From the NCBI GenBank assembly GCA_044220495.1, contig JBGAQY010000004.1:11069-75068 (forward strand): a stretch of DNA of 64,000 nucleotides. The letters run 5' to 3'. The position numbers were made by a program, and so were the translations under genes. The notes below the pieces were generated by a model. It was not told the origin of the DNA. It did not search any database and worked only from the letters and a program-made list of their open reading frames with translations. This document shows, one piece after another, positions 8,346-59,854 of this stretch. The DNA comes from Acidimicrobiales bacterium. GTDB taxonomy: Bacteria; Actinomycetota; Acidimicrobiia; Acidimicrobiales; JBBSGY01. The first letter of the stretch is position 1. Each line of letters opens with the position of its first letter.

Positions 8346-8487
8346 GCCGTCACGTTAGGGCTCGGCCAACGCACGTCGTGCCGGCCGGTCCGCCGGAGTC
8401 GCAGCCCAAAGCCCGTCCGCCGTCAAGCCTTGGCGCCCGGTGCTGCCGACCCACCCTTTCGGCCCGTCCGCCCTTCCGTCTCGGCGC

Positions 8488-8561
8488 CCTTTCAACTACG
8501 CGAAAGTGCCAAAAGTGCGCGCTTTCGGAGCCGTTTTTGGGCTTTTCGCGTGGTTGAAATG
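8488..8561. repeat. palindromic intergenic repeat, copy A (74 nt)
   Basis: The left arm is cctttcaactacgcgaaagtgccaaaag. The right arm gtttttgggcttttcgcgtggttgaaatg is its near-perfect reverse complement. It shares termini and length with the copies at 13714 and 33213. Confidence 0.8.
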
Positions 8562-8613
8562 AGAGCGGAGCCGCGCCGAGGGACGCGGTCTGGCGAGCGT
8601 GCTGGCGTCGGGG

Positions 8614-8811
8614 TTAGCGGTCGTTTGCTTTGGGCAACACGAGCTCTCGACGGGGCTGGATTAGGTCACGAAGGTGAGTCCACGCGTCGAGTTCTTGCAT
8701 AGAGGAAGCAGCGTCAGAGGTAAGAATTCGCTTTGTAGCAGTCATGGCCCCATTCATCGCCAGCCAGCTTCGAATCTGAAGGGTTTCAGCGATGTTTTCT
8801 AGGCTCGTCAT
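8614..8811 (-). CDS. hypothetical small protein (65 aa from internal ATG)
   Basis: Part of the 118-aa track ORF. Taking the ATG at 8811 avoids overlap with the pirin start. The region is ~50% GC, has no clear SD and no recognised motif. Confidence 0.25.
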   Translation of the reverse strand: MTSLENIAETLQIRSWLAMNGAMTATKRILTSDAASSMQELDAWTHLRDLIQPRRELVLPKANDR

Positions 8812-8956
8812 AGCTTTGCCATATTGGGAGACGAAATGGCCACGAGCAGCGAATATGCAGGGGAGTCGGCGGCTGCGCAGCGTGGTGCGCTGCGTGGGAA
8901 TGTTCGCACTGCAAGTATCGTTGCAGCCGGGCACAAGCAATCTTTTGGAGGCCACG

Positions 8957-9904
8957 ATGCCCGCAGTCACCGTTTCTGATCCGCTAACCCTTCCTCGAGT
9001 TTCGGTGCCCGAGATCGCTGCGTTGCCGCGTGGAGTCGTGTCGGTGACGACGGCACCGTCAGGCTACGAAGGCGAGGGCTTCCCCGTGCGCCGTGCCTTT
9101 GCTGGCGTGAGTCAGCGTTACCTCGACCCCTTCATCCACATGGACCAGATGGGTGAGGTCGAATATGCACCGGGCGAACCCAAGGGCACCCCGTGGCATC
9201 CACATCGAGGTTTCGAGACTGTCACGTATCTGCTCGATGGAACTTTTGTGCACCAAGATTCGAACGGTGGTGGCGGCGTCATCACCAACGGAGCAACTCA
9301 GTGGATGACGGCCGGCTCGGGTTTGCTGCACATCGAAGCTCCGCCTGAAGAGTTGGTTGTGAGTGGCGGACTGTTCCACGGAATTCAGCTGTGGGTGAAC
9401 TTGCCGTCTGCGTCGAAGATGACAACGCCGCGCTATCAAAACCTCGAAGCCGAAGAGGTGTCGTTGCTGACATCGCCCGATGGTGGTTCGCTCATTCGTT
9501 TGATCGCCGGTGAGCTTGGCGGTTACCGCGGACCGGGTTCTACACACAGCCCAATCACGTTCGTGCATGCAACCGTTGAGCCGGGCGCTGAACTCGAACT
9601 GCCGTGGGACCCTGAATTCAACGCACTTGTTTATGTGTTGTCGGGCCAAGGTGTTGTTGGCGCCGATTCGCGTCCGATTCATACCGGACAACTTGCTGTG
9701 TTGAGCGAGGGTGACACTGTTCGTGTGCGCGCCGATGAACAACAAGAGAGCCGTCATCCGGCCCTCGACGTGTTGGTGTTGGGTGGGCGGCCCATTGGTG
9801 AACCCGTTGCTTGGTATGGACCGTTCGTCATGAACACCGAAGCCGAAGTGCGTCAAGCAATGCTCGACTTTCACGCCGGCCGTTTGGGCACTATCCCGGA
9901 GTAA
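8957..9904 (+). CDS. pirin-family cupin protein
   Basis: Contains GFPVRRAF...DPFIHMDQMG...WHPHRGFETVTYLLDG...HQDS, the pirin metal-binding His cluster. I chose ATG 8957, preceded by GGAG at 8947-8950, over the track start at 8792. Confidence 0.85.
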   Translation: MPAVTVSDPLTLPRVSVPEIAALPRGVVSVTTAPSGYEGEGFPVRRAFAGVSQRYLDPFIHMDQMGEVEYAPGEPKGTPWHPHRGFETVTYLLDGTFVHQDSNGGGGVITNGATQWMTAGSGLLHIEAPPEELVVSGGLFHGIQLWVNLPSASKMTTPRYQNLEAEEVSLLTSPDGGSLIRLIAGELGGYRGPGSTHSPITFVHATVEPGAELELPWDPEFNALVYVLSGQGVVGADSRPIHTGQLAVLSEGDTVRVRADEQQESRHPALDVLVLGGRPIGEPVAWYGPFVMNTEAEVRQAMLDFHAGRLGTIPE

Positions 9905-9910
9905 GCGGCG

Positions 9911-10900
9911 CTAGGCGAGACTGAAGCTAGGTGCCTTGCCGGAGTCGACAAAGTCTTTGGGTAGTCGAAGATGTTTCGGCTGGAGCGGCTCGATGTGTAC
10001 GGGAGTGATTTCTGCCCGCTGCATCACCTGGCTTTGGCCGATTGCTAGTAAGGCTTCTTCTTCGGCGACTCGAATTCGGCGCTCCGCCGGCGAAAGCTGA
10101 TTCAGTTCCGCTTTTGGCGTGTGGAGAGGGAACAAGTAACGCACGTTGCCGGGCGACATGTAGGTTCTGACTCCGACGATGAACAGCGCGCGGTGATACC
10201 AGTCGAGTACGGGTTCGTCGGCTTGGCGTTCGGGTGCTCCGAACTCGAGCAGCCGTTCTTCAACTGAGTTGCCGGTGCCGTTTTTCAGCTTGTCGACTGA
10301 GCGCGGGTGAATCAGCGTGCCATCAGGCAACACAAGACAGCGATCTTTGCTCGCACGTCCGGTGCAGATGGCGTTACTGGCTCGATATATCTGGCCCCAA
10401 TGGCCGGGAAAGACAAGCTTTCCCGAGAGTGTTGTGCGCGGGACTGAATCAGACATGGCAACGACGCCGCGCACGCCAGCTTTGCGCGCCAGCTCAAAAC
10501 CGCGATTTAGAAACCACGTCTCTCCGTTGAATCCAACCTCGTCGAGCAGCACGAAACGGCCGAGCTCGAGACTCTGTGTGTACTTGGTGAGTTTGGGGAA
10601 GGCGTTTGTGAGTACAAGCGGTTGCACGGGCGACGACAGCACGGCAACGCCTTGAAGGTCGTCGCCTTTGAAGAGTCCGAAGCGATGCACGTCGGCTACA
10701 AACGATCCTGAGTAGTGGTGCGTGACTACAAAGTCTTTAGCGGTTCGAAAGTCGATAGGAGCAACGTCGTATTGCTTGCTGTCGAAGGGTTGGCGATGAC
10801 ACACCCACTTCGTCTTGCGCTCGCGAGTCCTTTGATCAACTTGGTGCTCGTTAACGCCAATGGGCAACTCGAGCTGTACGGCTCCGTATGAATTCACCAC
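9911..10900 (-). CDS. Mom-like / GNAT-fold acyltransferase-type protein (candidate nucleic-acid modification enzyme)
   Basis: 329 aa. The motif series is AKDFVVTHHYSGS ... FGLFKGDDLQGVAVLSSP ... SLELGRFVLLDEVGFNGETWFL ... VVAMSDS...GHWGQIYRASN ... VRYLFPL. This follows the pattern I recall for Mom-family (phage Mu) adenine-modification homologues. Recognition is by eye only. Confidence 0.5.
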   Translation of the reverse strand: MVNSYGAVQLELPIGVNEHQVDQRTRERKTKWVCHRQPFDSKQYDVAPIDFRTAKDFVVTHHYSGSFVADVHRFGLFKGDDLQGVAVLSSPVQPLVLTNAFPKLTKYTQSLELGRFVLLDEVGFNGETWFLNRGFELARKAGVRGVVAMSDSVPRTTLSGKLVFPGHWGQIYRASNAICTGRASKDRCLVLPDGTLIHPRSVDKLKNGTGNSVEERLLEFGAPERQADEPVLDWYHRALFIVGVRTYMSPGNVRYLFPLHTPKAELNQLSPAERRIRVAEEEALLAIGQSQVMQRAEITPVHIEPLQPKHLRLPKDFVDSGKAPSFSLA

Positions 10901-11193
10901 AACCCCGTCGTGTCTCTTCCTGGTGCATGCGCGGTGAGCACTCCAAAGAACAGATCAGGTTCGTTGTTTGCAACGGCTGTGGTTGGTCGTGCGCCGGTGA
11001 CGACTTCGCCATGATCATTACTAAAACGTGTTGCGACCGCGTGTGCAGTTTGGAGGGTCGCGTCACTAAGGCGGTATGCGCTTTCGGTGATTGGCCGCGA
11101 CCGAGGCACGCCGTTGTCGTCCCAGTGAACAACGAGAACACGCGTTCCGGGTTGCCAAGTGAGGTCGACGATCGAGCCGGCGTTTGTGCGCAT
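10894..11193 (-). CDS. hypothetical protein, translationally coupled to the Mom-like gene
   Basis: The stop overlaps the start of the downstream Mom-like gene by 7 nt. Sampled third-codon positions are mostly G/C (14 of 18). The start is either ATG 11193 (100 aa) or ATG 11310 (138 aa, which would overlap the upstream gene). Confidence 0.45.
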   Translation of the reverse strand: MRTNAGSIVDLTWQPGTRVLVVHWDDNGVPRSRPITESAYRLSDATLQTAHAVATRFSNDHGEVVTGARPTTAVANNEPDLFFGVLTAHAPGRDTTGLW

Positions 11194-11269
11194 GCACCAA
11201 GAGTGGGTCGGGGTCGGGGAGTGCACCGAGGAAGTTTGGAGGCGGTTGGCACGCGCACCAAATCCGGCG

Positions 11270-11887
11270 CTATGTCGTGATGGTTGACGACTCTGTGCTT
11301 TGTGGTGCACGACGCTGGCGCAGTTGTGAGCGCCGAACGATAAGCAGAGTCACGAGCACGACGTTCATAAGGCCGACCGCAGCGGGGTAGACGGCTGTTG
11401 CAAGTGAAAGCTTGGCGAGAGCGATGATCGAGAGAGCGTGCTTGAGCATGCTGAGTTGGTGGGTGATCAGTGTTTCTTCATGGGGCTTGTTCCATGACTT
11501 GCGCAGCGTCGGGCCAAACGCCAAGAGGTCGATCAGTGTGACGAGGATGATCGAGAGCAGCGGACCATCAGTGGCGAGCCAAGCAAGCCCGGCAATTGCG
11601 CAGCCGACGAGACTTAACCAGTCGCTTCGGGTGATCTGCTTCTCACCGTGACTGATGGCTAGCAAAGTGATTACAACGCAGAGGGCCGCTGTTGTTCCGG
11701 TCGCCCATGTTCCGGGGCCTCCGCCGCTGACGACTTGACCGGCGAAGGCAATCGCGGTCATCGCCGTCCAGACGATCCACGTAAAGAGATGCGGTCGAGT
11801 CTTGTCGAGCCACGTGTCGCGAATGTATGGAACAAGGCTGACGATCGAGATGACAGCGGCAAGCGCGCCGAGCAGTTCTTTACTCAC
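11270..11887 (-). CDS. integral membrane protein (about 6 TM), unknown function
   Basis: 205-aa hydrophobic ORF (LGALAAVISIVSLVPYI, FTWIVWTAMTAIAFAG, LSIILVTLIDLLAFG). It lies 36 nt downstream of the RCC1-repeat gene on the same strand. Confidence 0.65.
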   Translation of the reverse strand: MSKELLGALAAVISIVSLVPYIRDTWLDKTRPHLFTWIVWTAMTAIAFAGQVVSGGGPGTWATGTTAALCVVITLLAISHGEKQITRSDWLSLVGCAIAGLAWLATDGPLLSIILVTLIDLLAFGPTLRKSWNKPHEETLITHQLSMLKHALSIIALAKLSLATAVYPAAVGLMNVVLVTLLIVRRSQLRQRRAPQSTESSTITT

Positions 11888-11923
11888 CCGGCCAACGTAC
11901 AGCCAGATGCCTGTTGGTCGAAG

Positions 11924-13615
11924 TTAGAAGCTCGGAACCGCCGTGTAGACGACACTCGAGCTGTAAGAGCCTGCTGTTGAGGTCGCAGCAATGGCTACGC
12001 CGTAACCGACACAGCGACTCTTGCTCGTAGTTCCAGCGGTGCCAATCAACACAGCTGAGTCTGTGTTGGTGAGCTTGGCCCAGGTGTTCGACGTAAACGC
12101 GGTAGATGCATCGCTAGACGTGTAGCCAAAGCCAGCAGTGCCAGCAACTGGCGCAGCACCAGGCGACGCGTTGGTTCCAGGCACATCAGCAACTGTTGAA
12201 CCACCAGATGTACGGAACGAGTTAGGCGTAGTACCCGATGTGCGGATGTAAACGGTGAATCCGTTTGCCGCGTTAGTTGCAAGAGTTAAATCTTGAGCAG
12301 CACCAGCAACTGCTGCTGATGTGAGATGTCCAAGACTTACAGCAGTCGATGTTGAACCAGTTTGAAATCCAGTGCCTGACTGTCCATTGCAAACAGTTCC
12401 ACGACCGGCAACGGTGAATGTGAGTGAAGGATCGACGATGCCGGTGATTGTCACTGATCCAGTCCCGACGAATAACCATGCAACCGTGGGTGCCGCTTGA
12501 GTTGCAGTTGCGTTGTTGCCAACTTCTCCGTCACCGCCGTATCCCCAACACTTCACGCCGCCGCCATCGGTTACGCCGCACCCGAACGTTGAGCCCGCTG
12601 ATATACGTTGCCACTTATAACTGCCAGTCAAGATGGTTGGCTGGCCTTCAATGTTGTTGCCTGTGCCGAGACCGAATCCGAGCGACGAACCCCAGCAGTA
12701 ACCGTCGCCAGTTGTTGAAACTCCGCACGCGAACTGTGAACCAACCTCAATGGACGCAAATAGCACGCCGCCGAGTGGGGTCACGGGCGTTGACGAGTCG
12801 GTCCAGTCGTTGACGCCAGTACCGAGCTGGTGTCCGTTGTTGCGTCCCCAACACCACGCAACGCCACCGCCGGTGAGCGCGCATGAACTTCCTTCGCCGG
12901 CTTTGATGGAGGTGAAAGTGTGTCCGCCGGCAACTGCTGTTGGCACCAAGCGGTCAGTTGTAGACGCGTCGCCTAGCTGTCCGCCGTTGTTGCGTCCCCA
13001 GCAATAAGCGGCGCCGCCCGTTGTGAGACCGCAGGTGTGATACCTACCGCCGTCGACTGATGCGAAAGTTAGACCGCCAGAAACGAGCGTGGGGCTGAGC
13101 GATGCGGTGGTGCTGTTGTTTCCAAGCTGGCCGTAAGTGTTGTCACCCCAGCAGTAAACAGCGCCTGACTCGAGGCCGCAGGTGTGTTCCCATCCCGCTG
13201 AGATCACGGAGAAGGTGTGCCCGCCCGTAACGGCTTGAGGTACGTCTGATCCCGACGTGGTTCCTGTTCCCATGTTGTTGCCGTTGCCCCAGCAATAGGC
13301 AGCGCCGCCTGTGGTGAGGGCGCACGTCATCGTTCCGCCTGCGGTTATGGAGCTCCAGGTGTGTCCGCCGGCGACGAGGGTGGGTATCGACTTGTTTGAC
13401 GGAGTGCCCGTGCCGTCGCCGAGTTTGCCGTATCCGTTTTGCCCCCAGCAGTACGCATCGCCCGAGAGTTCGAGTACGCAGTTGTGTGACTCGCTGGAGG
13501 TGACAGTGGCGGTGGCACCGAGGGCGAAGGCCGGTTTGGCGGGCGCGATGGCTAGAAGCAGGGTCGTCAAGACCATGGCTGCTGCTGAGCTCGCGAGAAT
13601 CCGCCTTAAATCCAC
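11924..13615 (-). CDS. secreted RCC1/BLIP-II repeat protein with C-terminal beta-rich domain
   Basis: 563 aa. It has a signal peptide (...APAKPAFA/LG) and about 7 repeats of the YCWGxNxxGQLGxG type. The C-terminal ~190 aa are Gly/Thr/Ser-rich and end with SYSSSVVYTAVPSF. Confidence 0.8.
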   Translation of the reverse strand: MDLRRILASSAAAMVLTTLLLAIAPAKPAFALGATATVTSSESHNCVLELSGDAYCWGQNGYGKLGDGTGTPSNKSIPTLVAGGHTWSSITAGGTMTCALTTGGAAYCWGNGNNMGTGTTSGSDVPQAVTGGHTFSVISAGWEHTCGLESGAVYCWGDNTYGQLGNNSTTASLSPTLVSGGLTFASVDGGRYHTCGLTTGGAAYCWGRNNGGQLGDASTTDRLVPTAVAGGHTFTSIKAGEGSSCALTGGGVAWCWGRNNGHQLGTGVNDWTDSSTPVTPLGGVLFASIEVGSQFACGVSTTGDGYCWGSSLGFGLGTGNNIEGQPTILTGSYKWQRISAGSTFGCGVTDGGGVKCWGYGGDGEVGNNATATQAAPTVAWLFVGTGSVTITGIVDPSLTFTVAGRGTVCNGQSGTGFQTGSTSTAVSLGHLTSAAVAGAAQDLTLATNAANGFTVYIRTSGTTPNSFRTSGGSTVADVPGTNASPGAAPVAGTAGFGYTSSDASTAFTSNTWAKLTNTDSAVLIGTAGTTSKSRCVGYGVAIAATSTAGSYSSSVVYTAVPSF

Positions 13616-13713
13616 ACTTCGGTATCGACGCGATTGGTCGCAAGCTGGAGCCCGTTGTTGCCTGGCGGTTGCTCGTTGCTCGGCGGGCCGAGACCGCCTA
13701 GCCCGCCGAGCCG

Positions 13714-13787
13714 CCTTTCAACTACCCCAAAAGCCCAAATTTCCGCCCAGAAAGGCCCACTTTTGGGCTTCTTGGGTACTTGAAAGG
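13714..13787. repeat. palindromic intergenic repeat, copy B (74 nt)
   Basis: The arms are cctttcaactaccccaaaagcccaaat and acttttgggcttcttgggtacttgaaagg, which are reverse complements of each other with a few mismatches. It sits in the divergent intergenic region between 13615 and 13880. Confidence 0.8.
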
Positions 13788-13879
13788 GGTGGCCACTGAG
13801 TTTGAAACGCTGGCTCTAGTCGGCCGAGGCAACGGTGGTGCTTATCCAATCACGCTGATATGCGTGCAAGCATGGGTCG

Positions 13880-33212: not shown

Positions 33213-33288
33213 CCTCTTTCAACCACGCGATATAACCAAACACAGGCGTGTCCGTTGCTGTTTTTGGCCTTATCGCGTGGCTGAAAGG
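33213..33288. repeat. palindromic intergenic repeat, copy C (76 nt)
   Basis: The arms are cctctttcaaccacgcgatataaccaaa and tttttggccttatcgcgtggctgaaagg, which are reverse complements of each other. An outer ccagcc/ggctgg pairing extends the stem. The copy lies just downstream of trpD. Confidence 0.8.
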
Positions 33289-33333
33289 TGATGGCTGGTA
33301 TCGCAGTCTGGGGCACTGTCACACCCCCTCGTC

Positions 33334-51882: not shown

Positions 51883-52155
51883 TTAGAGGCCGAGAAATGG
51901 TTCTCGCGGACGCCGCCGAGCGTTGCGAGCTCTCGTTTCTTCAATCATGTCGATCATCTCGGCCGCCAAATCGATCGGGCCCTCCGTGGCTACTTCGAGG
52001 CTGGCGTCTGAGGAGCGGTGCTCGTCGGATCCGGTCGCCGCAATTTCGGGTTGTTCACTCAAGGGAGTCTCCACGGTCGTGTAGTCGAGGTGATGGCCAA
52101 AGGCCGGCTGGAACAACGGTATCGGCCGACCTGGCCCACGGCAACGGTTGCTCAA
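51883..52155 (-). CDS. hypothetical acidic small protein (weak call)
   Basis: 90-aa ORF whose ATG overlaps the ArdC-like stop by 4 nt. Third-position GC is not clearly better than in the other frames (about 68% vs 68% and 54% over 50 codons). Confidence 0.25.
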   Translation of the reverse strand: MSNRCRGPGRPIPLFQPAFGHHLDYTTVETPLSEQPEIAATGSDEHRSSDASLEVATEGPIDLAAEMIDMIEETRARNARRRPREPFLGL

Positions 52156-53189
52156 AGGCTCATTGCTGCCTCGTTGTGAGTGGATTCCGCGAGAGCGGCC
52201 ATTTCGGCGTCGAGATCGTCGGTTGATTCGTGTGTTTGTTCAACGCCGCGACCGAGTCCGAGGATGTAGTTAGCTGCTTTTTGCCCAGCGGTTGCGGCGA
52301 GGGCAATTGCCTTGGGGTCGTTGCGCAACACCTGTAGCCAGTTCGCCAAATAGTCCGCATGATGCAGTGTTGGTTGATCTTCGATTCCCGTAGTCGCGCA
52401 CAAGAATGCCGAACTGAGTTCAGCGATCAGTTCTTCTTCGGCGTAACTCGTGCTGCCAAAGCGTCCTCCTGTTGCACGACCCACGCGACGATCGTTCGAC
52501 GTCGAATGCGAAAGTTCGTGAAACATTGTGCTGTAGAAGCGGTCAGCTGACGGGAACGCGTTCATTGGTGGCGTCACGATCATGTCGTCAGACGGCGAGT
52601 AAAACGCCCTGTCGATTTCTTGATGACGAATAGTCAGCCCGTCGTTACGCATGGCGGCGATGAGCCGCTCGGCGATGTCAAGTCGTTCGTGTTCGGGTCG
52701 GTTCGGCGGCGCCCACTTGTAACCATCGACGACGGCTGCATTGAAAACACAGAAGCCGGTGGGTACACGTTTGGTTCTCGGGGTGCTGTCGTCGCTCAGT
52801 GACGGCAACCTGCGTTCGCGTGATGGCGTCGAAGTTGTGCGACTGCGACGCGATGTCGAGCCTGTCGCTCCATCGCGAGGCTTGACATCAACCCACCGGA
52901 TCAAATGGACCCCTGCACCTTTTGCTTCACCGTTGCTTTTGAGCTTGTAGCCAGCATCGTGCCACTGCTTGAACGTTGCCCAGACGGGAGCCTCATAGCC
53001 ACGAGACCCAGCAACGAGTGACAGCAGCAGCTGGTTGAGCCCGTGGTACGGATTATCGGTTGTTGCGTTGAAATGTCCTTTGGTCATTACTGACCACGGC
53101 TTTCGCCAGCCGTCGGGATCGGCAATTCCTTGTTCGATCAGTTGCACTAGCTGACCAGTAACTGATGTGTAAATGTCGTCGGCTTTCAT
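52152..53189 (-). CDS. ArdC-like antirestriction protein (ssDNA-binding N-domain + zincin metallopeptidase)
   Basis: 345 aa. The N-terminal region is PWSVMTKGHFNATTDNPYHGLNQLLL...WATFKQW and the C-terminal HExxH motif is MFHELSHST. A Ser/Thr/Arg-rich linker (GATGSTSRRSRTTSTPSRERR) separates them. Confidence 0.7.
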   Translation of the reverse strand: MKADDIYTSVTGQLVQLIEQGIADPDGWRKPWSVMTKGHFNATTDNPYHGLNQLLLSLVAGSRGYEAPVWATFKQWHDAGYKLKSNGEAKGAGVHLIRWVDVKPRDGATGSTSRRSRTTSTPSRERRLPSLSDDSTPRTKRVPTGFCVFNAAVVDGYKWAPPNRPEHERLDIAERLIAAMRNDGLTIRHQEIDRAFYSPSDDMIVTPPMNAFPSADRFYSTMFHELSHSTSNDRRVGRATGGRFGSTSYAEEELIAELSSAFLCATTGIEDQPTLHHADYLANWLQVLRNDPKAIALAATAGQKAANYILGLGRGVEQTHESTDDLDAEMAALAESTHNEAAMSL

Positions 53190-55181: not shown

Positions 55182-55256
55182 GGCGGCGTAGCCGAGTGGT
55201 TCAGGCAGGGGCCTGCAAAGCCTTGTACACGGGTTCGAATCCCGTCGCCGCCTCCA
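55182..55256 (+). tRNA. tRNA-Cys (GCA)
   Basis: Acceptor ggcggcg/cgccgcc, anticodon stem ggggc/gccuu with loop cuGCAaa, T-arm acggg-uucgaau-cccgu, discriminator U and an encoded CCA. Confidence 0.95.
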
Positions 55257-55454: not shown

Positions 55455-57917
55455 TTGGTCGGGTTTGTGCCCTGGTCGTACCGTGCTTCGGTGCCTTCTC
55501 AAAACCCGGAACTCGATGCAATTCTGAACGGCGAATGCAGCGCTCGCGAAGGGGTCGCCGCTCTATTTGGCAGCGGATCAGTAAACCTCGTGTCTGCTGT
55601 CGACCAATTCTTGAGTTCGTCGCCGAGCGACCTCGACCACGCAACGTTGCGTGTTGTGGCTGCAGCAGCGCCGTACTTCCACCCAAATCAAGTTGCAGAG
55701 TTGATCAGGCGAATGCCGGTCACCGGCGTGCAAATGAAAGTGGCGCCAGTTCATATACCGGAGCTCTCGGCCGCCTTTGGTGAAATCATTGGGCGCTACA
55801 AACCTGACACTCGCTTCTCGCTTGTCAGTGATCTCATCCACACCCAAGTGGCCGAGACGATCGACTTGGTGCCAAGTGCCAGCATGACCGAACGAGGTCG
55901 CCTCGTGCTTGCTGAACTTCTTGCGTCTCGAGCAAAGCAGGGTGGCTGGACCGCCAAGCGCGACGTCGTGCGACACAAGTTTTCGACCCCGGCGATTTAT
56001 GCAGACGTTGTGGGGGAGTTTTGTCGCCGAGGCCCACGGATCGATGCCGATACTTACGCGCGGACCTTCAAAGACCTTGCCAGCAGTCGCCATGCTGACG
56101 ATCACGCGCGTACGCGATTGTTCGCGAGCGCACTAAAGGTCGCTAACACGCCGGAGCTGTTCTCCTTGCTCAACTCGATCACTCGTGGCGTGCCGACCGA
56201 GTTGCTCACCAAGGCCGTGCTGACAGCGCGCGCAAAAGGTTTCAAGTGTGACGGCGTGAACGACGAGCTTGCCTCCCGCGTCGACGCGCCATCACATGTT
56301 GTTCGCTACATAGCCACGGTTGGTCGCGTACCTGCGCTCATGAACATCTTGCGGCGCAACGACGTTTCGCAAGCAACAGTTCGCATTTCCTCCGAGCGCC
56401 TCGCCAACAAGGTTGGACTGACCGAGACCATGCGCAGGGCCTTGGTGCGCGAACGTCTTACGGCGATCGTGGAACCCGATGACAGTCGAATGCCCGAGTC
56501 GACAGCAGTGGCTCACATACCGCTGGCTTGGCGAGACTTTCTGATCAGAATTTCGAGCCCAACATTGCTCGCACAGTTTGCAACCCAGGAATCGTTGGGA
56601 CGCCCGTACGCGCTGACGCACATCAACACGCCTCAAGCCGTACAAGTAGAAGCAATTTCCCAGGGTGGGGAGAAGCTAGCCAACTGGGTGTGTTCTGCTA
56701 TCGACATAGACGCGACCCTGCTCGATAAGGCGATCGCAGCGGCGAGTCGCGAGGGTCTGGAGCGCGTGGCGAACCGAGTTGATGTAACCGATGCACAACT
56801 AAGTGTGGTGGCTAAAGCGTTGAGCCGCCGCAAAGAGCTCAACACTGAACGCAAGCGAGCCATTCTGTCGAACGCAAACGTGGGCCGCGATCTTGTTATG
56901 TCGCTCATCACGCCAGCGTTTGTGGCCCAAGCAGCTCGGCCTTCGAGTGTGTTGGCAGCTGAGTATTTTGAGCAGGTCCAAGCTGAGATGGCTGTGTCTC
57001 GCAACCGTGCTCACTATGCAGAAGAAGCGACACGACTGGTCGAAAACCTAAGTCTGAAATCGTACGGTGGTGCCTACGCAGTCACCGACGCTCAACGACT
57101 CTTTCGGTACTTCGACGAGGGCGATCGCGAGAGAGTTGGCGCTGCACTTCGTGGCAACCCTCGAGCTGTCGCCGAAGCGTTGGCGGCGGGAGATCACGAG
57201 GCAGCGTTGCGTAGTGCGCCTGAACGTTATGCATTTATTGCGGGCCTAGGTCTACTCGATAAGCGCGTTTGGCGCTTTGCCACGGCATCGCCTTTCCGTC
57301 GCTCGGCTGCCTGGCTTGCTTGTCAGCCAGATGCGCCTGCGAGCGAGTTTCAGCATCTTGCTGCTGAAGCAGTTGACACCACAATAGAGATGGGTCGCAA
57401 GTTAGCTGCGACCGTTCAGTACCCCAACGATGAAAGCAACATGCGATGGCAGCAATTGCCCAACAAGAGTGACCTTCCGTTCAAAGACACCGACGCGCGA
57501 CGCTTGACTCGCTCGATGACCGCTGGTGGGTTGACAGGGACGTTGATCAGCTCGCCGCGGCAACTAAGGGCACTTGCCTTGCGCATGGGCAACTGCCTTG
57601 CTGTCTACGAGAGTTCGCTCAGTTACGGACATTCAATTGCTGTCGCGTTTGAAGACCCGACCCAAAGCGACGTGCACGTTGCCATGTGGGATACGCGGCA
57701 TGTCCATGAGACTCAGCAACTCACACTCCGCCATCTTGAGTCGAAGTATGAGCAGCACACCTATCCACCTGAACTGAAGCGAGAATTGCGCAGATTGGTC
57801 ACAGAGATCAATCGCAACCTTCGCGACGGAGTTGTTGAGCCAGTCGTGACTGCTGACAAGATTTCGCTGCCCACCAGTGCGCGCAGCGGTCAAGTCAACT
57901 TGAGCCTTGGCGCATGA
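55455..57917 (+). CDS. large helical-repeat protein with PcfJ-like C-terminal region
   Basis: 820 aa and predominantly alpha-helical, rich in Ala/Leu/Arg. The C-terminal LISSPRQLRALALRMGNCLAVYESSLSYGHSIAVAF resembles the PcfJ motif (L..EG..M.HCV..Y), with Asn replacing His. Recognition is by eye only. Confidence 0.45.
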   Translation: MVGFVPWSYRASVPSQNPELDAILNGECSAREGVAALFGSGSVNLVSAVDQFLSSSPSDLDHATLRVVAAAAPYFHPNQVAELIRRMPVTGVQMKVAPVHIPELSAAFGEIIGRYKPDTRFSLVSDLIHTQVAETIDLVPSASMTERGRLVLAELLASRAKQGGWTAKRDVVRHKFSTPAIYADVVGEFCRRGPRIDADTYARTFKDLASSRHADDHARTRLFASALKVANTPELFSLLNSITRGVPTELLTKAVLTARAKGFKCDGVNDELASRVDAPSHVVRYIATVGRVPALMNILRRNDVSQATVRISSERLANKVGLTETMRRALVRERLTAIVEPDDSRMPESTAVAHIPLAWRDFLIRISSPTLLAQFATQESLGRPYALTHINTPQAVQVEAISQGGEKLANWVCSAIDIDATLLDKAIAAASREGLERVANRVDVTDAQLSVVAKALSRRKELNTERKRAILSNANVGRDLVMSLITPAFVAQAARPSSVLAAEYFEQVQAEMAVSRNRAHYAEEATRLVENLSLKSYGGAYAVTDAQRLFRYFDEGDRERVGAALRGNPRAVAEALAAGDHEAALRSAPERYAFIAGLGLLDKRVWRFATASPFRRSAAWLACQPDAPASEFQHLAAEAVDTTIEMGRKLAATVQYPNDESNMRWQQLPNKSDLPFKDTDARRLTRSMTAGGLTGTLISSPRQLRALALRMGNCLAVYESSLSYGHSIAVAFEDPTQSDVHVAMWDTRHVHETQQLTLRHLESKYEQHTYPPELKRELRRLVTEINRNLRDGVVEPVVTADKISLPTSARSGQVNLSLGA

Positions 57918-58924: not shown

Positions 58925-59854
58925 CTAAGCGACGTCGGCGTCGGGCTTGGGATTGTCGGCGGGCACCCGCGGTGACGACAGTCCGGCCTTCAATCCTGAC
59001 GCAACGGTGGTGCGCGTTTCGCGGTCGTTGAGGCCAATGGCGATGCCGGTATCGATAAGTGCCATCTCGACTGCGTCGTAGTCAAGTGACCCGCCGCCGA
59101 CAATTTGCCCAAGTTTGAATGCGCAACGGTTGAGCGTGAAGTTGCGGGCACCGACAGGCGCTCGATGCAACTCGTCGAGTTCGTCTTCGAGAGCACTCAA
59201 CGCCCAGCGATTGCTCGCACGCACCGGACGACGAGGAACGATTGACGGGCGCGGCTGCTCTTGTTCTTTGAGCAGTTCGAGTAACCAACTGGGCAAGTCA
59301 GCAAGTGGCTCATCTGAAGTGATGTGGTAGCGGCGTCCGCTGGCATGCAGGCTTGGGGGCGCAATTACGTAACCACCGTCGCCGCGAATGTCGAGCCCGG
59401 GGCCAAGTCGACGTCCGGCGTCGTTGGGAATGCGCACGTTTGGGTGCGCGAAATAGAAGTGCAGTCCGTCTGAGCCCGTTGCAACCGTAAACGTATGAGG
59501 CAGCGCACCGTATTGCTCACGCAACTTCTGCAAAGAGTCGAGTCCACCGTGTGCCGGATCGACATCAACGACAACGAACCCACTCTCGGCTCCGCTTCTA
59601 ATACCGACATTCGCGTGCGGCCAACGCTTCCACCATCGTTTGATCTGCTCGCGATCGGTAACCGCTGACTTGAGACCATGTGCGACGATCGGGTGCTTCG
59701 ATGGCGAGGCGCAATCCGAAAATCCGCACGAACAATTGCTGGCGCCCTCTTTCACGACGTGACACGGAAAGACAGCCCAGCCGCGTGCGCCATAAGTAAG
59801 TGCTGCCTGCAGGGGGGTTTTAAAGTGCGGGGCCCTGGTTTGGCGGTCAGACAT
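58925..59854 (-). CDS. bifunctional DNA primase/polymerase (Prim-Pol, AEP superfamily)
   Basis: 309 aa, with GWAVFPC, KHPIVAHGLKSAT-like, the catalytic VVVDVDPAHGG motif and GLHFYFAHP. The C-terminal helical region is typical of plasmid/ICE Prim-Pol proteins. Confidence 0.8.
   Translation of the reverse strand: MSDRQTRAPHFKTPLQAALTYGARGWAVFPCHVVKEGASNCSCGFSDCASPSKHPIVAHGLKSAVTDREQIKRWWKRWPHANVGIRSGAESGFVVVDVDPAHGGLDSLQKLREQYGALPHTFTVATGSDGLHFYFAHPNVRIPNDAGRRLGPGLDIRGDGGYVIAPPSLHASGRRYHITSDEPLADLPSWLLELLKEQEQPRPSIVPRRPVRASNRWALSALEDELDELHRAPVGARNFTLNRCAFKLGQIVGGGSLDYDAVEMALIDTGIAIGLNDRETRTTVASGLKAGLSSPRVPADNPKPDADVA

Follow-up and report, generated by a model that had tools for sequence, protein, structure and literature searches.

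A solitary Mom-family gene among core genes of an Acidimicrobiales chromosome

The locus and its neighbouring genes

The window, a stretch of 64,000 nucleotides from an Acidimicrobiales bacterium, carries a gene of the Mom family on its minus strand (Table 1). In the public gene call this gene starts one codon later, at GTG 10897, giving a protein of 328 residues. A pirin gene converges on it, the stop codons lying 6 nt apart, and on the other side a spacer separates it from the gene for a membrane protein, which is followed 36 nt further upstream by a gene for an RCC1-repeat protein. An earlier note on this DNA had placed a membrane protein and a secreted RCC1-repeat protein upstream on the same strand, and the hydrophobic segments of the first and the signal-like segment of the second confirm both.

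Table 1. Features at the Mom-family locus, in window positions.
Feature	Position	Strand	Remarks
Pirin	8957..9904	+	Pfam Pirin and Pirin_C; gene call on contig L001; neighbour only
Mom-family (PF25680) gene	9911..10900	-	329 aa from GTG 10900; Pfam, PHROG, fold
C-terminal tail of Mom protein	9914..10114	-	residues 263-329; alignment and pLDDT
Insertion between last GNAT strands	10157..10339	-	residues ~188-248; alignment and model
GNAT core	10340..10771	-	residues 44-187; carries H62/Y63, R115, T128, D151, R155, Y172
Small ORF of the earlier note	10894..11310	-	138-aa open frame, 100 aa from first ATG; TGA stop; probably not a gene
Spacer, membrane-protein gene to Mom	10901..11269		369 nt; no supported gene or RNA
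Membrane protein	11270..11887	-	205 aa; 6-7 hydrophobic segments (hydropathy); uncharacterised family; neighbour only
RCC1-repeat protein, secreted	11924..13615	-	Pfam RCC1/RLD; signal-like N-terminal segment; neighbour only

A conserved neighbourhood was considered and rejected: in tblastn searches of 160 Mom loci, the membrane protein, the RCC1-repeat protein, pirin and a nearby kinase match only a near-identical contig (L001) from an independent sample. The RCC1-repeat protein has no homologue among the 160 related loci. The membrane protein has 129 homologues, none of them with a Pfam domain, and a link between it and Mom was likewise rejected, as Mom is absent from three homologue contexts in which its family occurs, two of these with glycosyltransferase neighbours.

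Core genes fill the 10 kb on each side of Mom. One flank holds TrkA/TrkH, ArgRS, a CT398-type zinc-ribbon protein, Maf and pirin, and the other an AAA_18 kinase, a beta-eliminating lyase, a GNAT and SbcC/SbcD. Over about 10 kb in both directions there are no genes for capsid, tail, integrase, Dam or Com, so the absence of such genes that had been noted before holds over this distance, and the site is chromosomal with no prophage around it. None of the 3130 neighbour proteins collected from related loci finds a match within 10 kb of Mom.

Much further off in the window, two genes of the mobile-element type were observed, ArdC (52152..53189) and Prim-Pol (58925..59854).

A divergent relative of phage Mu Mom

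The protein encoded by the Mom-family gene is a true but divergent relative of phage Mu Mom, a GNAT-fold DNA-modifying enzyme. Pfam PF25680 matches it with 74 bits against a cut-off of 27.1 (E=1.7e-20), residues 44-209 aligning to profile positions 2-156 of 202, and PHROG 1384 ('Mom-like DNA modification protein') matches with E=7.9e-27. Across Pfam, NCBIfam and PADLOC, Mom is the sole family matched and no toxin GNAT family appears, and the PADLOC defence-system search returned no significant matches. An AF2 model (pLDDT 82, pTM 0.76, with a confident core of 195 residues at pLDDT >= 90) finds the Mu Mom crystal structure 8bv8 as its top PDB match in Foldseek (E=1.3e-9, TM 0.65 on the target), generic GNATs ranking at least 1000-fold weaker. 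Its top match in BFVD is Mom of Salmonella phage FSL SP-031 (E=2.2e-14, TM 0.76, rmsd 3.3 A). All the motifs listed for this frame in the earlier note are present, in the order given there, and the resemblance to Mom proposed there is borne out by the agreement of profile matches above curated threshold, fold search and active-site residues. The profile and structure comparison proposed in that note accordingly gives PF25680 above its cut-off and Mom as nearest structural neighbour.

The best structural match, Mu Mom (NP_050657; PDB 8BV8), is a Gly-tRNA-dependent DNA adenine N6 aminoacyltransferase in which R111, S124, D149 and R151 are essential (PMC13219725). In the alignment, the window protein retains H58/Y59, R111, D149 and Y159 of Mu Mom in the form of H62/Y63, R115, D151 and Y172. 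S124 is replaced by T128, which retains the hydroxyl group, at a column where Ser and Thr alternate across the clade of relatives described below, and we assume that the threonine stands in functionally for serine. Four of the residues, R115, D151, R155 and Y172, are invariant in the alignment of 42 clade members. The D-E-R motif of Mu Mom, whose D149 aligns with the invariant D151, has the form D-x-x-P-R in the clade and is followed there by an 11-aa insertion; the alignment is ambiguous at this point, and from the sequences R155 is likely the equivalent of R151. Two tryptophans of Mu Mom are not conserved. W48, at the dimer interface, is R52 in the window protein at a column that varies in the clade, and is probably a feature of the Mu protein and not of the whole family, while W181, inside the HTH-like insertion, is a leucine.

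Both proteins have a GNAT fold in which an extra insertion precedes the last strands, and both begin with a basic N-terminal segment. The HTH-like insertion of Mu Mom (residues 175-209), which is needed for activity (PMC13219725), has its counterpart in the insertion listed in Table 1, about 25 aa longer and modelled as helices 199-206, 212-219 and 231-242 between strands 186-190 and 245-249. With identity to Mu Mom at only 25%, the window protein is further set apart by the 11-aa insertion after the Asp motif and by its extra C-terminal tail. A stretch of about 30 aa within this tail is missing from all 41 aligned relatives (41/41), and pLDDT falls below 50 over residues 293-322. The genetic setting differs as well: in Mu, mom belongs to an operon within a phage genome in which com, encoding a Cys4 zinc finger, overlaps the mom start, whereas around the window gene there is neither a phage nor Com nor a control region of the Dam/OxyR type. 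The locus is not a Mu-type mom operon.

The small overlapping frame and the spacer

The start of the Mom gene overlaps by 7 nt (4 nt, GTGA, with the public start) the stop of a small open frame, as the earlier note had described, and this frame also lacks any recognisable motif, with nothing found in Pfam, NCBIfam, PHROG or PADLOC at E<=1. A stop/start overlap of the GTGA kind is typical of coupled genes, com overlaps the mom start in Mu, and GNAT toxins of the TacT/AtaT type likewise have a small upstream antitoxin gene and bind aminoacyl-tRNA too. Such likenesses speak for a translationally coupled two-gene unit, in which the small frame would encode a Com-like translational regulator or the antitoxin to a GNAT toxin. 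The composition of the frame argues against it. Its third-position GC, previously called good, is 0.58 against about 0.63 in the annotated genes, and its values by codon position (0.63/0.58/0.58, against about 0.65/0.45/0.63 in annotated window genes) lack the coding pattern. Of the six frames of the spacer three are open, the other two with similar GC values, and all three look non-coding in their GC by position. The encoded residues, poor in K/E/I/Y and rich in T/A/S/R/H/P, look equally non-coding, and the codon-usage fit is 6th worst of 48. Neither candidate start is preceded by a Shine-Dalgarno-like sequence, the frame is not in the public gene call on the near-identical contig, and its single cysteine excludes a Com-type zinc finger.

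Conservation, which the earlier note had proposed as a check, was not found. An exhaustive phmmer search of 1.84e9 representative proteins yielded no true homologue; its four matches share a short 'LTWQPG'-type motif in repeat proteins, and the small ORF was rejected as a conserved protein. A tblastn search with three frames across the 160 Mom loci matched only the near-identical contig. Comparison with type II toxin-antitoxin pairs (TacT/AtaT, DUF1778) leads to the same result: a GNAT fold binding aminoacyl-tRNA and a small ORF overlapping its start are common to both, but here the larger protein matches Mom and not the toxin GNAT families, and the small ORF has neither a DUF1778/RHH match nor homologues. 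The locus is not a GNAT toxin/DUF1778 antitoxin pair.

Other candidates for the spacer were rejected. For an RNA element, Rfam gives no match at E<=1, the fold z-score is -1.0, no promoter consensus was found and terminator-like sites are at chance level. For a pseudogene remnant of a usual neighbour, blastx against the 3130 neighbour proteins from related loci reaches no better than E=0.53. Neither the small ORF nor the upstream membrane protein is a partner of Mom. The proposal of a modification module with an unknown partner therefore fails, since the small ORF is not conserved, an outcome that the earlier note itself had set against its proposal, and has no coding signature, and since relatives of the membrane protein are unlinked to Mom.

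Relatives on mobile elements and the standing of the chromosomal copy

The closest relatives form a clade of long-form proteins annotated 'Mom family adenine methylcarbamoylation protein' (e.g., WP_254401029.1 from Streptomyces sp. AC555_RSS877), found on actinobacterial, Chloroflexota and myxobacterial plasmids, viral contigs and islands. They belong to the same Pfam family as the window protein, are 40-53% identical to it over about 240 residues, and share with it the residues invariant in 42 members. They occur on at least 101 IMG/VR contigs and in 92 plasmid records, 39 of these from Streptomyces, and every relative in this identity range that could be examined comes from a phage contig, a plasmid or a phage-like gene array. 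The three closest (50-53% identity) all sit in phage-like arrays with RusA, DUF5131, an HTH repressor, and methyltransferases or PAPS reductase. At least 84 of the 160 loci carry one or more of 14 annotated DNA-modification or mobile-element clusters, and the cassette genes beside the clade Moms include C5 and N6 methyltransferases, DpdA, PAPS-reductase-like genes, ArdC and DUF5131. Apparent fusions of Mom to a PAPS-reductase-like domain (L018/L029) are frame artefacts with no Pfam match. The clade is thus overwhelmingly carried by phages and plasmids. Unlike its members, which lie in mobile-element modification cassettes, the window gene is alone among core genes. The earlier description of the gene as host-encoded stands insofar as the site is chromosomal with no prophage around it; given where the clade resides, a gene of mobile-element origin, stranded on its own in the chromosome, is the better reading.

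We infer the mobile-element origin from this distribution. No integrase, att site or compositional anomaly (GC, codon usage) marking an insertion was found. An island bounded by two 72-nt palindromes that bracket 8561-13712 was rejected, as a third copy at 33217-33290 indicates a dispersed REP-like repeat. Delimiting an island by comparison also failed, the nearest ArgRS-bearing contigs being too distant (ArgRS <=64%) to provide an empty site; in other ArgRS-bearing contigs, synteny is lost past the zinc-ribbon and DUF3467 genes. The family is already named; the location of this member among core genes is unusual.

In our best explanation, to which we assign a probability of about 0.72, the locus holds a solitary Mom gene of mobile-element origin with host-like codons, probably still encoding a Gly-tRNA-dependent DNA adenine-N6 modifier. 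The gene would have arrived on a mobile element and then been left behind or kept in the chromosome of an uncultivated bacterium, whose ArgRS by its similarity suggests, though not decisively, a place in Actinomycetota. If expressed, the enzyme would act as Mu Mom does (Silva et al. 2026, PMC13219725), taking glycine from Gly-tRNA(Gly) and attaching it at N6 to an adenine flipped out of double-stranded DNA, after which a rearrangement of the glycyl adduct on the base would yield N6-carbamoylmethyl-adenine. The cell's own DNA would thereby become resistant to some restriction enzymes. Mom without regulation is toxic in E. coli (PMC7261163), and an unregulated chromosomal copy is therefore no obvious fit.

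The divergence of the protein raises a different prospect, namely that the gene is what remains of a phage or plasmid cassette since lost, inactive and drifting towards a pseudogene. Among the 42 aligned members, the window protein diverges most (mean identity 44%, against 52 +/- 2.5% for the others), and its branch is the longest in the clade. Of 85 highly conserved columns, 14 have a non-consensus residue in this protein, and at two of these 14 all 41 relatives agree (Gly replaced by Thr at 209, His replaced by Ser at 249). Its low-confidence C-terminal insertion is its own. Taken together, these features suggest that it may be decaying or changed in function. In keeping with decay, the usual neighbours (methyltransferases, DpdA, PAPS-reductase-like genes) are all lost, and among 5.8 billion proteins there is no close orthologue except in the near-identical strain. 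Several observations nevertheless make a relic unlikely: the 329-codon frame is intact and without a frameshift, the Mu-essential residues that can be aligned are kept (S124 as Thr), the model has a core of very high confidence, and the codon-usage fit is host-like, above the median at 33rd of 48. Moreover, the independent sample encodes an identical protein, and over 8700-11888 the near-identical strain shows 2 SNPs, both in the adjoining spacer and none in the Mom gene.

A gene domesticated by the host would be compatible with the intact frame, catalytic residues, host-like codons, core flanks and two-sample identity. That the chromosome is marked with N6-carbamoylmethyl-adenine or a related aminoacyl-derived adduct seems rather doubtful to us, as does, to the same degree, a standing tRNA-dependent hypermodification that serves as a shield against incoming nucleases or as a self/non-self mark. 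Still less probable is a changed function, in which the Mom fold and aminoacyl-tRNA chemistry would serve a host process with another acceptor (RNA, protein or small molecule) or another aminoacyl-tRNA. Such a change would agree with a solitary chromosomal gene that has host-like codons, substitutions at conserved positions and a novel segment at its C-terminus, and substrates of GNATs are not predictable from structure according to the authors of PMC13219725. On the other hand, the longer insertion, the basic N-terminus and the DxxPR motif that differ from Mu are common to the whole clade, which sits among DNA methyltransferases and DpdA in a DNA-modification setting, and the neighbourhood gives no hint of an alternative pathway. 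The two-gene unit discussed above is close to refuted.

Mom-type modification has so far been a phage counter-defence, demonstrated for Mu and two metavirome homologues only; these homologues had been picked at random for the assays (PMC13219725). Mom-family genes normally reside on phages and plasmids, whereas the window copy stands alone among ordinary chromosomal genes. If this copy were active, adenine in the genome of a cell would be hypermodified in a tRNA-dependent way, with a bearing on restriction, DNA glycosylase defences and sequencing chemistry in the host organism. The survey also maps the uncharacterised long-form clade, which occurs widely on plasmids of actinobacteria and on viral contigs from soil and makes a better experimental target than a single stray copy. 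Its habitual position next to C5 methyltransferases, DpdA and PAPS-reductase-like genes points to a part in stacked anti-restriction cassettes.

Family assignment and comparison with phage Mu Mom

Mom moves glycine from Gly-tRNA(Gly) to adenine N6 in double-stranded DNA. The glycyl adduct undergoes rearrangement on the base, and the product, N6-carbamoylmethyl-adenine, blocks many restriction enzymes (PMC13219725); this work supersedes the mechanism proposed earlier, in which acetyl-CoA and iron took part (PMC7261163). The motif series from which the earlier note proposed a Mom-like gene is present in full and in the order stated, and membership of the Mom family is borne out by profile HMMs, fold search and residue alignment with Mu Mom. 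The Pfam Mom profile (PF25680) scored 74 bits (gathering score 27.1) and PHROG 1384 ('Mom-like DNA modification protein') matched at E=7.9e-27, while plain phmmer over PDB sequences matched Mu Mom weakly (E=0.086). The PDB structure closest to an AlphaFold2 model of the protein, built with 42 homologues as input (pLDDT 82, pTM 0.76), is Mu Mom 8BV8 (E=1.3e-9), generic GNATs being weaker matches by a factor of 1000 or more. The Mom of Salmonella phage FSL SP-031 heads the matches to predicted viral structures (E=2.2e-14, TM 0.76, rmsd 3.3 A).

The window protein shares about 25% identity with Mu Mom (sequence taken from NC_000929). Among the residues important in the phage enzyme (Silva et al. 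2026; PMC13219725), H58/Y59, R111, D149 and Y159 are kept as H62/Y63, R115, D151 and Y172, and S124 is conservatively replaced by T128, Ser and Thr alternating across the clade. R151 probably corresponds to the invariant R155 in an ambiguous alignment of Mu DER with the clade's DxxPR plus an 11-aa insertion; W48, at the dimer interface, and W181 are not kept (R52 and L196). The insertion preceding the last strands, essential in Mu Mom (PMC13219725), has a counterpart that is about 25 aa longer. Its place in the Mom family thus has good support. The model (m0865b3e750b5) also matched many Myoviridae proteins of 500-700 aa in BFVD that carry a Mom-fold domain (E down to 5e-12) and are annotated 'endonuclease-like' or 'homing endonuclease'; in large phages, Mom-like domains thus appear, judging from predicted structures, to be fused to nuclease-like domains.

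Features of the window near the Mom gene and at the outlying ArdC and Prim-Pol genes
Feature	Position	Strand	Remark
Palindromic element, copy 1	8487-8560		intergenic
Pirin	8957..9904	+	converges on Mom stop
Mom-family gene	9911..10900	-	329 aa from GTG start
Small ORF	10894..11310	-	open frame ending in TGA inside GTGGTGA
Spacer	10901..11269		369 nt
Membrane protein	11270..11887	-	205 aa; 6-7 hydrophobic segments
Secreted RCC1-repeat protein	11924-13615	-	563 aa; signal-like N-terminus; 36 nt upstream of membrane-protein gene
Palindromic element, copy 2	13713-13788		intergenic
Palindromic element, copy 3	33217-33290		intergenic
ArdC-type anti-restriction protein	52152-53189	-	ArdcN + zincin peptidase domain
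tRNA-Cys	55182-55256	+	between ArdC and Prim-Pol
820-aa ORF	55455-57917	+	no Pfam or PHROG match; between ArdC and Prim-Pol
Prim-Pol primase/polymerase	58925-59854	-	

Mobile-element setting of the clade

A word-indexed search returned 1400 relatives. Leaving the self-match aside, the best of them have 45-53% identity, lengths of 260-300 aa and, in every case, PF25680; in NCBI and UniRef such proteins already bear the name 'Mom family adenine methylcarbamoylation protein'. GTDB species representatives yielded 100 confirmed relatives (80 loci kept) from Chloroflexota, Actinomycetota (many Streptomyces), Myxococcota, Acidobacteriota, Planctomycetota, Gemmatimonadota and Proteobacteria. At least 101 relatives (36-48% identity) occur on IMG/VR viral contigs and 92 records on PLSDB plasmids, 39 of them from Streptomyces; isolated phage genomes hold distant relatives only (identity at most 31%).

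From 160 Mom loci, 3130 ORFs were clustered and recurrent clusters annotated. A C5 DNA methyltransferase recurs directly upstream of Mom, and a homologue (PF23859) of DpdA, the transglycosylase inserting 7-deazapurines into DNA, lies directly downstream in 15 loci (including L024:10851-11663 and L066:10985-11755). Other recurrent neighbours are PAPS-reductase-like proteins, Dam-type and N4/N6 methyltransferases, DUF5131, RadC, DprA, DnaB, integrase, portal protein and ArdC. One or more of 14 annotated clusters occur in at least 84 of the 160 loci, a lower bound because annotation covered those clusters only. Each of the nearest three relatives whose contigs were usable (P0004, P0005 and P0006; 50-53% identity) lies in a one-directional array of small genes, among which are RusA, DUF5131, an HTH repressor, methyltransferases or PAPS reductase. 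These neighbours and arrays mark the clade as part of the anti-restriction cassettes of phages and plasmids, and the combination of DpdA downstream, C5 methyltransferases upstream and PAPS-reductase-like genes nearby suggests cassettes that stack several modifications. Three Chloroflexota MAG contigs with the closest named relatives (L002, L003 and L071) share an element within 6 kb either side of Mom comprising an extra DnaN sliding clamp, a prokaryotic ubiquitin-like protein with a ThiF-type E1, a DUF6094 methyltransferase, an AAA ATPase and a radical-SAM protein.

The window copy and its interpretation

The window Mom stands apart from such cassettes. Its flanks of about 10 kb hold TrkA, TrkH, ArgRS, a CT398-type zinc-ribbon protein and Maf on one side and an AAA_18 kinase, a beta-eliminating lyase, a GNAT, SbcC and SbcD on the other; the absence of phage context was confirmed, no phage, integrase, Dam or Com gene lying among them. 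When all 3130 neighbour proteins were compared with the window by tblastn, no clade neighbour family was found within 10 kb of Mom; besides Mom itself, only an ArdC 41 kb off and generic genes at scattered places gave matches. No repeat, tRNA or integrase marks an insertion at the gene, and its GC and codon usage are ordinary (its fit to the codon usage of the window ranks 33rd of 48). The order pirin-Mom-spacer-membrane protein recurs with an identical Mom protein on L001, a near-identical strain's Logan contig from an independent sample. This identical protein (P0001), found on a 125.5-kb NCBI contig and the 4-kb Logan contig, is called one codon later in public annotation (GTG 10897). For the window ArgRS, three contigs show 64% identity; MAGs labelled Acidimicrobiales or Actinomycetota, and likewise Sorangium, reach about 55%, and the sole syntenic contig loses synteny past the zinc-ribbon and DUF3467 genes; with no close sequenced relative of the host, no empty site could therefore be located.

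With family, fold, residues and context in hand, we read the gene, at a probability of about 0.7, as a stray mobile-element-derived gene that probably still encodes a DNA adenine modifier and has no partner; within this reading, activity and decay are roughly evenly balanced. If expressed, the enzyme would be expected to follow the chemistry of Mu Mom, and, with no phage attached to it, the DNA that it modifies would be that of the host. Decay of the gene as the whole explanation is unlikely. The window protein diverges most among the 42 aligned (mean identity 44% versus 52 +/- 2.5% for the rest). It departs from the others at 14 of the 85 highly conserved columns, including two at which all relatives are invariant, and has a C-terminal insertion of about 30 aa, unique among those aligned and of low confidence in the model; the residues kept from Mu Mom stand beside these departures. 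A changed substrate seems to us very improbable.

A domesticated Mom hypermodifying a cellular chromosome, of which our literature search found no published description, is improbable here. The family is already Pfam-curated and NCBI-named and its chemistry was solved in 2023-2026; the window gene is a new and divergent addition to it, atypically placed, rather than a system of a new type.

An approximately 72-nt palindromic element (arms about 26 nt, core TTTCAACyACsCGAwA, inverted copy about 22-30 nt away) occurs three times, two copies bracketing the pirin-Mom-membrane-RCC1 segment. A 27-nt indel relative to L001 (8573-8588) adjoins the first copy. No Rfam family matched the scanned copy, and the element looks like a dispersed REP/MITE-like repeat or operator. 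Stray mobile-element-type genes, ArdC-type and Prim-Pol, lie 41-49 kb from Mom, and no integrase was identified; in the related locus L111, ArdC is directly upstream of Mom.

Proposed partner genes

The earlier note had proposed a module with an unknown partner. The small ORF does overlap the Mom start by 7 nt (4 nt under the public start), and its supposedly good third-position GC is the one descriptive point of the note that did not hold up: GC1/2/3 is 0.63/0.58/0.58 versus about 0.65/0.45/0.63 in annotated window genes, and two other spacer frames are also open with similar values. It has no Pfam, NCBIfam, PHROGs or PADLOC match at E<=1, no counterpart among the 160 Mom loci, no gene call on L001 and no Shine-Dalgarno-like sequence ahead of either start. 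Its composition (high T/A/S/R/H/P, low K/E/I/Y) is typical of translated non-coding GC-rich DNA. Across 8700-11888 the window and L001 differ at just two positions, both inside the spacer; the numbers are small, yet they point in the same direction, against the ORF being a gene. When 1.84 billion representatives were searched exhaustively with HMMER, four matches came up, rejected as short motif matches within unrelated repeat proteins, and a Com-like protein was rejected because of the single Cys. The spacer has no Rfam match, no unusual folding (z=-1.0) and no detectable remnant of the usual clade neighbours.

The same-strand membrane-protein and RCC1-repeat genes upstream are as described. 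The membrane-protein family (129 members detected, no Pfam domain) is scattered among CPR (Microgenomates/Daviesbacteria) and alphaproteobacterial MAGs; no Mom lies near its homologues in three contexts examined, two of which have glycosyltransferase neighbours. With the small ORF lacking gene evidence and the membrane family lacking a nearby Mom, the module is therefore not supported, and a two-gene unit of Mom and small ORF, for all their overlap, is highly improbable. The C-terminal third of the RCC1 protein (residues 422-563) bears a weak likeness to the C-domain of the CPR 'Pam pilus system pilin subunit' (NF058581; E=4e-4, 20 bits, below the cut-off of 55), and the membrane protein gives a faint PnuC-like hint (phrog_1880, E=0.11).
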